Source: a virus. Taken from it: a stretch of DNA of 64,000 bases. Positions within the stretch are counted from its first letter, which is position 1. Every line of letters begins with the position of its first letter. The translations under genes and the position numbers were made by a program. The DNA lies in IMG/VR virus record IMGVR_UViG_3300046170_000505. The stretch is one strand, 5' to 3'. A model generated the notes under the pieces. That model made no database searches and had not been told where the DNA came from. It saw only the letters and a program-made list of their open reading frames with translations. Shown here piece after piece: positions 2-3,000 of the stretch.

Positions 2-3000
2 GGATTTGAACATGCAATTTCAGATTTTAAACGTCGTAAACGAGGACTTGCGGGATCTCCTCTTGATTTTATAGATGTCCCTGGAGAAGCTAAATTCGGA
101 CCAACAGCATATAAAAACACCCTTGACGAGCATTTAACAGGAAAATTTTTAAGGCACTTAATTGGCACTGACTCAATATCATGGCCACCACGAGCAGGGT
201 ATGGAAGCTTAGGGCGTCTAGAATATTTTCATACAGAAAGTTTTGGCGCTCCTACTATGAAACATATAGAGCAGCGAAACAAACAAGCCCACAATATAAA
301 AGCAAATTTAGGCCTAATCCCTAATTTTGCAGACTACAGAACTCGTGAACAAAAAATAACAGATTATTTAAATGATCCAGCTAATGACAAAGTAAAGTTT
401 AAAAGGCCTAAAATGCCAGCAAATATAACTCCTACGCAAATAAGTATGGCGATGAATGTCCCAGTAGGAGGTAATGTTACTAAAGAATATTCTGACAATG
501 AAATTAAAAAAGCAATATCAGAAACAATACAGAAAAGAAAAGATTTACAACTGGAGGGTTTTGAAAATTTAAAAAACGTAGACATAGATTCTGTTCTTAA
601 AAAATACAAAGAATCAACAAAAGATGGGGATTTCTATGGCGATAAAGATTTAAGCTATTCTTCTGGTCTCGTTCCTAACTTCGTTGATAAAGTTCAAAAC
701 GGTGCAATCTACTACAGTAAGCCTCACAATAAGATCGTGAGGGTAACTCGCGTAGATAATGACAAGAAAATCGCAAGGATCAAACATCACGACATGGAAA
801 AATACAAAGATGAGGAAGTATTTTTCAAAGATCTTGAAGCAGTTTCAGCTGAACAGGCAAAAGAATACTTCCAGAAAAAGAGTTCTGGCCTTGTTCCTAA
901 CTTTGCACAACAAGCAGGCAATACTTTGTTGATGGAGCCAAGTAAATTTTTTACTTATGCCAACTCAAGCGATGTGGCTAAAGCTCTAGGGAAAGGAGTA
1001 AATTACAGAGAAATTCAAGATAAGATGGACTCACAGGAACCTGTATCGATAAAAGCTAGCCTGCTGGATATCATAACTTCGTCTGACAAAAATAAAACAA
1101 AACCCACTGGAAAAGAAGCATTACATGGCACCTTTAACTCTTTAGCGTCAAAAGGGATTTCTTATATAGAAAGAGATTTTATTTTCAGGCAACTTAAAAG
1201 AAGAGGAGCTAGACAAAAAAAAGGAGAATCAGATCCAGATTTTAACGAAAGAAAAGTCACTGCTCAATTAAATGCGGAACAAGATATAAGAGAAACAGCT
1301 GGATCAACTTACACAAAATATTTATCTACATATAACCCTGAAACAAAAAAGGGCGACCCTTCTTATCCCATCGATCATATAGCAGAAGGTCTTGAGTTTT
1401 CTTCAGGAGAAACTAAAAGCGGAGAATTTATCGCCGCAAATTTGATCTCTAAAAGTTTGCGAATGGCTTCTGATAGAGAATTAACCTCATGGTTAGAATC
1501 TCAAGGCGTTAAAGACAAAGGTCTTGATGAAAAAAACTTAAAAAGAGCTCAAAACCTAGCCTCTCAACTAGGAATAAAAGGAACTAAAAAAGATGAATCT
1601 GAAGAACCCACTTTTGATCAAATAGACGCTGACGCTTGGGGAATGAATAAGGGGTTGGTGCCTAATTTTGCCGATCTAAGCAAATCAGAGAGGCTCAAGA
1701 TGATGAAAAGTACATTAAGTTTCCAGGACGAATACGAAGATTTAGCAAAAATGGGCAGTCCGCTAGCAAAGTGGGCCTTAAAGACCGTCAAGGACAAAGA
1801 ATTCAAGATGATTGGCAATGGAATGGAATCGTGGGCCATAGGAAACGAGGAGGTTGTTTATAAGCTGCCAAGGCCAATGATAGATAGCTTTAGTAAAACA
1901 GGCGATCTAGAACTAAAAAGATGGAGAAAGCAAATGAAAGTGATGGCTCAACCTTCTCTTCAGTATAAAGTGAGTCCAGAAAATAAAGCTTGGAATCTTG
2001 TGCCGAATTCAAATATAGCAAAAAGAGCGGAAAGAATAAGGTCTCAACTTGATGAGCTTGGTATTAATTCACTGTTTTTACCAAAAACAGAGGTGTTAAA
2101 AGTAGCTGGGCAAGACGAGTTTATAACTTCCCAGGAAAGGGTTAAGGGTAGTACTTTTTTTAATCTTCAGAACGAAATTGTTAAAAACAAAAACAATAAA
2201 ACCGACTTTAATCTAGACGGTTATAAGATTGTCGAGCATTTAATGGAAAACATTGGCGAATCCACGATGATAACGGATGTACATTCTGGTAATTTTATAG
2301 CTGAGGCAAGCAAGAAGAAACAACTCTTAAATACGGTTAATCAATTTGCCCCTGTCGGATCAAAAGAATCTAAGCCGTTGAGTAGATTGGGATTGAGAAG
2401 TTTGCCTAATGACAGTATGGCTGCGATTGATTTTTCTTCAGGCCTAATTCCGAACTTTGCTGATTTATACAAGCCATACATGAATAAAGGGGGAAAGGCT
2501 ATAGGTATGGAAAATTATTTCTACAGTTCTAATAATCAGGAGGACGCACTAAATTACATAAAGTCCAACAAAAATTTGAATATAAAAACTGGAAGCTCTG
2601 AGCTCAGGAAGTTTAATTTTCCTCCGAGAGTTTGGGAAATGTTAACATCTAATAATCCTCAGGATATCGAACCTCAGATGAATGTACTGCCAATAGGAAC
2701 CAGGACCCCTATTGGCAAGGGCGACCCTTATAGGGATACAAGTCTCGGAAAAGGGATGAGCGAGCAGGAAGATTTTTATGCCATAGCTTTAAAGAATACT
2801 CTTGGGATAAGGCCTCCGTTCTTTGAAAAAACAGATTCCTGGAGAAACGGTGAGACTTATTCTACCTTAATGACTAACTCGTCGCAATTCAGGGAGATGT
2901 ATAATTTAAACAGGTTGGATGGGAAAAATGTTATTCCTAATTTTGTTAAATATGACAAATCGCGTGGAGGCTCAGGGGCATGGGGAGCTATACCTAATAA

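Follow-up and report, generated by a model that had tools for sequence, protein, structure and literature searches.

A protein-kinase-like cassette bounded by linker peptides in a phage tape-measure protein

Two described kinds of phage kinase come closest to the element reported here, a kinase-like module encoded in the virus record IMGVR_UViG_3300046170_000505. The stretch of this record that was analysed, 64,000 nucleotides (nt) in length, is referred to below as the window, and the module lies within a giant open frame, in the tape-measure position, near its start. One of the described kinds is the kinase of phage T7, gp0.7 (T7K), a proven protein Ser/Thr/Tyr kinase with a very broad range of host and phage protein substrates, which is able to disarm several defence systems (PMC13645617). 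Its kinase domain comprises residues 1–242, the substitution G76F in the G-N-G loop is catalytically dead, and D213 is the DFG-equivalent Asp, standing in a DPV variant of that motif, of which jumbophage and prophage homologues, too, lack the Val (PMC13645617). The other is the Kinase-PolyVal domain of the polyvalent proteins of phages and conjugative elements (Iyer et al. 2017, PMC5512222). This domain has lost the whole C-terminal subdomain and retained the active-site residues; a Glu precedes its strand 2, and the final strand of its N-lobe contains a Gln. Kinases without a C-terminal lobe (C-lobe) were thus reported in virion-delivered phage proteins in 2017; polyvalent proteins also bear zeta-toxin-like kinases acting on cell-wall precursors, and the term 'tape measure' is absent from the paper that describes them (PMC5512222).

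Neither a minimal phage kinase nor a kinase in an injected polyvalent protein is therefore new. What is new at this locus is a kinase-like domain embedded in a tape-measure protein, its form as an exchangeable cassette with a conserved linker, and a sequence family outside current models. An earlier note, made from the letters of the window, had described a minimal kinase-like module in the tape-measure protein and had called its packaging in a tail protein the unusual part; the tape-measure embedding is indeed new, whereas a kinase without a C-lobe in a protein delivered with the virion is not. Judged from its sequence, the module is likely to be a kinase-like, probably active domain. The best explanation of the data as a whole, which we hold with moderate confidence, is a self-contained protein-kinase-like domain without a C-lobe, carried as an exchangeable cassette in the tape-measure protein and travelling with it.

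Features of the protein-kinase-like (PKL) superfamily occur in order along the module (Table 1). GNGMES (amino acids (aa) 605–610) is followed by K621, and D759 and N764, five residues apart, are followed by D810. The candidate helix-C Glu is E677, a conserved residue that lines up with E123, invariant in the PF18762 (Kinase-PolyVal) proteins; its pairing with K621 is a prediction only. All of the motifs that the earlier note had reported inside the tape-measure frame are at the positions given there, in one continuous frame of 4122 aa. An ordered signature was composed of the glycine loop, the beta-3 Lys, D-x4-N followed by two hydrophobic residues, and a hydrophobic-D-aromatic motif. Because it was composed after the sequence had been seen, its frequencies are indicative only: it occurred in 9 of 200,000 composition-matched shuffles of the module, its variant with D-[LVIF]-H-x-x-N occurred in none of 200,000, and in the six-frame translation of the window (~120,000 aa) the module is the sole site.

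Table 1. Coordinates in the window of the carrier frame, the kinase-like cassette with its motifs, and the bounding linker copies
Feature	Position	Strand	Remark
Giant open frame, tape-measure position	2..12370	+	4122 aa in window, uninterrupted; 5' end cut off by window
Linker copy GLVPNFA, directly upstream of module	1652..1672	+	
Kinase-like cassette, 254 residues, aa 558–811	1673..2434	+	
Glycine-rich loop IGNGMES (G605, G607, E609)	1811..1831	+	preceding context FKMIGNG
Putative beta-3 strand VVYKL, ATP-anchoring Lys K621 (nt 1862–1864)	1853..1867	+	aligns to T7-family K93 and PF18762 K86
Candidate alpha-C helix AKRAERIRSQL, E677 (nt 2030–2032)	2018..2050	+	helix assignment predicted
Last N-lobe strand and hinge EFITSQERVKG, Q711 (nt 2132–2134)	2117..2149	+	strand assignment predicted
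Putative catalytic loop ITDVHSGNFI: D759 (nt 2276), H761, N764 (nt 2291)	2270..2299	+	
Variable insert, ~40 aa, catalytic loop to metal-binding Asp	2300..2419	+	poorly conserved in L002
AAIDF, putative DFG-equivalent metal-binding Asp D810 (nt 2429–2431)	2420..2434	+	
Linker copy SSGLIPNFA, ending cassette	2435..2461	+	AAIDF runs straight into linker

Relatives of the module are few. Among 1.84 billion representative proteins, searched exhaustively with phmmer, only four proved to be true relatives; a fifth match, P0006, was rejected as an artefact of immunoglobulin-like repeats. No further relatives came from word-indexed searches, contigs from viruses, metagenomes and genomes, when scanned by pattern, gave ~89% identical copies only or none, tblastn of the module against 50,697 phage records gave nothing even at E≤10, and megablast of the whole carrier gene gave nothing. 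One diverged relative, on the 192-kb contig L002, is 58–62% identical in the N half and 32–39% identical in the C half. G605, G607, E609, K621, E677, Q711, D759, H761, N764 and D810 are all conserved in it. Nine predicted key residues are all invariant at an identity that was also put at only 36–58%. The blocks that have been kept are IGNG.ESWAIGN, VYKLPRP, AKRAE, QER.KG, DVH.GNFI and IDF, the last three of which are the longest identical runs in the C half, while the segment from the catalytic loop to IDF is changed in sequence and 18 residues longer. From this selective retention it follows that the residues predicted to be catalytic are the most strongly constrained. In the L002 contig (10001–14700) the tape-measure gene is split into many called genes by frame changes, one of which, at locus nt ~12121, falls inside the kinase; as the record name includes 'pilon', errors of long-read assembly are the probable cause, and not real breaks.

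By sequence comparison, T7 gp0.7 appears to be the closest relative of the module found in this analysis, which makes it more than the functional precedent as which the earlier note had cited it. In an alignment of 10 T7-type kinases built from phage records, the invariant catalytic positions are G74, G76, K93, D195, H197, N200 and D213, and the module has counterparts to these in the same order (G605, G607, K621, D759, H761, N764 and D810). The T7 gp0.7 motifs FKMLGNG, VIKV, FDMHSGNIM and ITDP correspond to FKMIGNG, VVYKL, TDVHSGNFI and AIDF in the module. Common to both are the F-K-M-[IL]-G-N-G loop, a V-x-K lysine 14–17 residues past the glycine loop, D-x-H-S-G-N followed by two hydrophobic residues, and a hydrophobic-D metal-binding motif. 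Both are also small phage-encoded domains that end soon after the metal-binding Asp: since short T7K homologues are 242–244 aa in total and this Asp is D213, T7K-type kinases too end ~25–30 residues past it.

Profile comparison with hhalign gave two colinear matches between the module and the T7-kinase alignment, one from the glycine loop to the Lys (score 23.7) and the other at the catalytic loop (22.5). No score above 20.8 and no second colinear match were obtained with 60 real 254-aa tiles from window proteins, and the top score was reached by none of 120 column shuffles. A separate hhalign implementation gave P=0.017 for the same comparison. The module differs from the T7 family in having IDF-S-S where the family has TDP(V), so that the DPV variant is absent, and in its spacing, with 138 residues from the Lys to the catalytic Asp as against 102 in T7K. 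A 34-aa insert precedes its metal-binding Asp, whereas in T7K and the PF18762 proteins only 12–13 residues separate the catalytic loop from this Asp. The DNA-binding shut-off domain is absent from the module, which is part of a structural tail protein, whereas T7K is a free early gene product.

An independent match, to Kinase-PolyVal, falls in a third block of the module. PF18762 members were recovered with the bait L012, the single sub-threshold match to the PF18762 hidden Markov model (HMM) in 401 genomes of one phylum. Against these proteins, hhalign placed the segment of the module from SQERVKG to DVHSGN on SQPDI.G to DAHP.N (P=0.015–0.018), with S-Q711 on their invariant S156–Q157; 2 of 150 shuffles reached this score. 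In a MAFFT alignment E677, Q711, D759 and N764 share columns of at least 90% conservation with the PF18762 proteins, and K621 is on their invariant Lys. From the helix-C Glu to the Gln there are 34 residues both in the module and in the PF18762 protein P0013, from the Gln to the catalytic Asp 48 and 49, and from this Asp to the Asn 5 in each. The Gln and Glu that mark Kinase-PolyVal are also found, with Q711 on Q157 and with E609 12 residues before the Lys (14 in P0013), the strands themselves being predicted. An alternative N-lobe alignment, of RWRKQMKV on the RWIKVTK of PF18762, was rejected: its Lys is lost in L002 (RWRAEMQR), where VYKLPRP is invariant.

The module and Kinase-PolyVal are alike in lacking the whole C-terminal kinase subdomain, in an S-Q that lies in the final strand of the N-lobe, ahead of x-x-[IV]-x-G, and in a D-x-H-x-x-N loop (FDAHPAN in PF18762) and an [IP]-I-D-F motif (PIDF in PF18762). 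Both are found in a very large multi-effector protein with predicted delivery along with DNA. A true G-x-G glycine loop sets the module apart from the PF18762 proteins examined, as do a longer segment from the Lys to helix C and the insert before IDF. The carriers differ too, that of the module being a tape-measure protein; no zincin metallopeptidase motif (HExxH) was found in the part of it within the window, in contrast to typical polyvalent proteins, and the modules of the present array are separated by a conserved linker peptide.

Comparisons beyond these two families were made with small-molecule kinases and with language-model features. Against the APH alignment (PF01636), hhalign aligned only the catalytic loop, with D759 and N764 on the catalytic Asp and Asn of APH (P=0.21), and a poorly built alignment of Kdo kinases gave nothing. 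In the ESM Atlas the module was placed next to small viral proteins, and the top neighbour (score 0.95) was a viral 'protein kinase domain-containing protein' cluster, a score that shuffled proteins attain about once in 100. All 15 of the family-bearing neighbour clusters were kinases (13 T7 kinase, one Kinase-PolyVal and one Pkinase), with the caveat that one third of shuffled proteins also obtain ten same-clan matches.

The kinase-like module is one of ~11 into which the first ~1915 aa of the frame are divided by a linker peptide, [SK]-G-[LF]-[IVT]-P-N-F-[AVS], present in 12 copies between aa 107 and aa 1911. The short core of the linker is G[LF][IV]PNF(A). Its codon usage varies among the copies, and its conservation is therefore at the level of the peptide. 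That the module is bounded exactly by repeats, as had been proposed, is borne out by the GLVPNFA copy just upstream and by SSGLIPNFA directly after AAIDF. The linker begins two residues after D810, the domain ends one residue after the metal-binding Asp-Phe, and L002 shows the same junction (IDFAGGFIPNFA). At the level of sequence, the proposal that the module is minimal and has no C-lobe likewise holds, with the domain ending at this point and a different module following it among the relatives.

In the window, the kinase-like module is preceded by the module of aa 303–548 and followed by that of aa 821–975. In the relatives L001 and L003 the preceding module is a relative of the aa 1014–1266 module, again with the aa 821–975 module following; in L002 the same relative of the aa 1014–1266 module precedes, and a second copy of it follows. 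Because the neighbouring modules vary in this way, the kinase-like cassette is self-contained and moves as a linker-bounded unit. The aa 821–975 module was considered as a hidden C-lobe and rejected, as L002 has another module in that place.

The array as a whole (window 2–5743) is reshuffled among the related phages, with module order and content differing in L001/L003 and in L002 and with G[LF][IV]PNF at each of the boundaries. L002 has the linker motif in its + strand frames further downstream as well, at locus nt 16680, 16905, 20318 and 20592, past the part that matches the array of the window. A literature search for the linker peptide returned nothing. Another module of the array, aa 1660–1831 (window 4979–5494), contains LYRG, STS and EFEDEV in order, by eye the R-S-E order of ADP-ribosyltransferases; this module had no Pfam or NCBIfam match.

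The carrier is a very long tape-measure protein (>5000 aa), with the cassette array inserted between an N-terminal PF10145 part and a coiled-coil rod. Within the 4122 aa in the window, globular cassettes take up ~1915 aa and are followed by a coiled-coil-like stretch of ~1700 aa and, last, by a C-terminal region. Beyond ~aa 2200 the composition shifts to a helical or coiled-coil-like one, with E, K, Q, L and A up and G, P and aromatics down. The assignment is made because the very long gene lies directly upstream of tail-tip genes, because of this rod-like composition, because the tape-measure family phrog_339 has a weak match at aa 4037–4122 (the final 86 residues), and because PF10145 (PhageMin_Tail) is present in metagenome relatives, and only there, upstream in the part that the window cuts off. 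In the relative P0004, PF10145 and the N half of the kinase-like module are in a single polypeptide. The genes downstream of the carrier match lambda-type tail-tip PHROGs; they include genes for minor tail proteins and for a J-like central fibre whose N-terminus is I-like.

The central tail fibre gene (22849–28068, 1739 aa) matches gpI-type tail assembly PHROGs at residues 1–110 and gpJ-type families from residue ~950. It looks like an I-like/J-like fusion, with ~800 aa without assignment in between.

Tape-measure proteins occupy the tail lumen and exit first. Some of them hold enzymatic motifs, for example the peptidoglycan-hydrolase motifs of mycobacteriophages, which are thought to be active upon ejection; to our knowledge, the enzymatic examples act on the cell wall. 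The mycobacteriophage proteins resemble the present one in having an enzymatic domain inside a tape-measure protein, and differ from it in that the passenger here looks like a cytoplasm-directed kinase and is one of ~11 cassettes.

If the module functions as a kinase, ATP would lie under the G605-N-G607 loop, anchored by K621, which would pair with a helix-C Glu, probably E677. D759, H761 and N764 would make up the catalytic loop, and D810 of the IDF motif would bind Mg2+, after which the domain would run into the next G[LF][IV]PNF linker. The domain would travel with the tape-measure protein, the first to leave the tail at infection, and once in the cytoplasm might phosphorylate host proteins before or during the entry of phage DNA, as T7K does after early expression. 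This route is proposed because tape-measure proteins occupy the tail lumen and leave first, and by analogy with T7K; on delivery of the module with the tape-measure protein, taken by itself, our judgement is evenly divided. A further step, in which the protein delivers a ready-made, promiscuous, T7K-like kinase ahead of the DNA, and perhaps other cassettes too, released at the G[LF][IV]PNF linkers, with host defence proteins phosphorylated before phage genes are expressed, is speculative and on balance unlikely; it would make the array a pre-loaded, tail-borne anti-defence arsenal of exchangeable cassettes.

A number of results weigh against the reading of the module as a delivered kinase. None of the Pfam (including PF18762), PHROG and NCBIfam HMMs reaches it. 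The PF18762 HMM (cut-off 27 bits) had no match at E≤10 in the module or in a related viral record, with P0013 as a control at 36.6 bits, and the PHROG kinase families phrog_2828, 15752 and 18305 match T7K and not the module, even at E≤10. With an HMM built from T7 kinases the module ranked 4th of 390 window tiles (E=1.5), and HMMs built from the T7 kinase and PF18762 proteins gave no discrimination among window tiles. On the T7 kinase family itself the lack of a Pfam match is uninformative, because the Pfam set used did not include PF27024, the T7 kinase family named in the ESM Atlas, and T7 gp0.7 had no match there either. No PDB sequence matched the module by phmmer or by profile. The similarity is limited to short catalytic blocks, each single hhalign P-value being ~0.02, and hhalign of the isolated N-lobe, helix-C and C-terminal sub-blocks against PF18762 missed the expected positions. 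With only four true relatives, covariation is unusable. Structure prediction followed by Foldseek, suggested earlier as the check for a kinase fold, was inconclusive: AlphaFold2 gave predicted local distance difference test (pLDDT) scores of 38 with a 5-row alignment and 37 with an 11-row alignment to which PF18762 proteins had been added, with no usable model, and Foldseek on the low-confidence first model found no match at E≤0.001. ESMFold2, given the N half and the C half together with ATP and Mg, returned the verdict 'no answer' and was counted neither way. Finally, folded domains of ~250 aa, in at least 3 copies, do not obviously fit the lumen of the tail tube, and packaging and delivery are therefore unproven; the array would need to be in an extended form, located elsewhere or removed by cleavage.

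The failed HMM and PDB searches, the low confidence of both AlphaFold2 models with no significant Foldseek match on the poor one, the individually weak profile-profile P-values and language-model neighbours that can mislead would all suit a module that is not a kinase but some unrelated cassette of the tape-measure protein, globular or a spacer, with motifs that are coincidental or serve another purpose. We regard this as improbable, as chance would have to explain several facts together: five ordered motifs with kinase-like spacing, their selective conservation in a homologue 32–39% identical, two colinear T7-kinase profile matches unequalled by the real and shuffled controls, the independent PF18762 match in the third block, and a language-model score that is rare among shuffled proteins. 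The case for a kinase is made by several individually weak, independent and colinear signals together with selective conservation. The kinase-like reading of the earlier note has thus gained from the order and spacing of the motifs, the diverged homologue, the T7 gp0.7 and Kinase-PolyVal profiles and the language-model neighbours, and has no family HMM match to go with them.

A kinase-like fold could also serve in another role, as a kinase of small molecules or envelope precursors at penetration, as an ATP-binding pseudo-enzyme in tail assembly, or as a domain cut from its precursor and acting in the producing cell; we give these together a low probability. D-x-H-x-x-N is also the catalytic loop of aminoglycoside/choline-type small-molecule kinases, to which the APH alignment at P=0.21 would correspond, but T7K, whose protein substrates are proven, has the same D-x-H-S-G-N loop (PMC13645617), and the best profile matches are to protein-kinase-type phage families and not to APH or Kdo. 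A role at the envelope would have a parallel in the zeta-toxin-like kinases that act on cell-wall precursors in polyvalent proteins (PMC5512222). The repeated linker could be a cleavage site, and the presence of the module in the virion is a prediction, both of which suit a domain released in the producing cell, while the retention of all the catalytic residues speaks against a pseudo-enzyme. A domain with a predicted kinase fold and predicted catalytic activity, travelling with the tape-measure protein and probably directed at proteins rather than small molecules, is the reading we prefer.

Phage kinases have lately proved to matter for infection, as in the case of T7K (PMC13645617), which must first be expressed. 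A kinase in the tail protein that leaves first would, if confirmed, be at work from the very outset of infection. The concept of injected polyvalent proteins, framed for proteins packaged in the head, would then also cover the tape-measure protein. Linker-bounded, reshuffled modules suggest a natural plug-in system for virion-delivered effectors, of possible practical interest. Should the module prove to be something other than a kinase, what is left is a curious coincidence of motifs in a very large tail protein.

Several other genes in the window are of note. A papain-family cysteine peptidase gene (PF00112, E=9.5e-16) is found at 43048–44250, between two ribonucleotide reductase genes, which is unusual for a phage; no evidence ties its product to the linkers or suggests that it processes the tape-measure array. 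The class I ribonucleotide reductase large subunit (40225–42648) has relatives 74–81% identical on contigs of metagenome-assembled genomes (MAGs) from four differently labelled groups (Thermodesulfobacteriota, Woesebacteria, Cellvibrionales and Halobacteriovorax). Most likely these contigs belong to related phages and ended up in bacterial MAGs through binning, and the kinase-like module was found in none of the four MAG genomes that carry the reductase relatives. Two adjacent glycosyltransferase genes, of GT1 type and GT25 type, are located at 47585–49686, in the region of replication and nucleotide metabolism.

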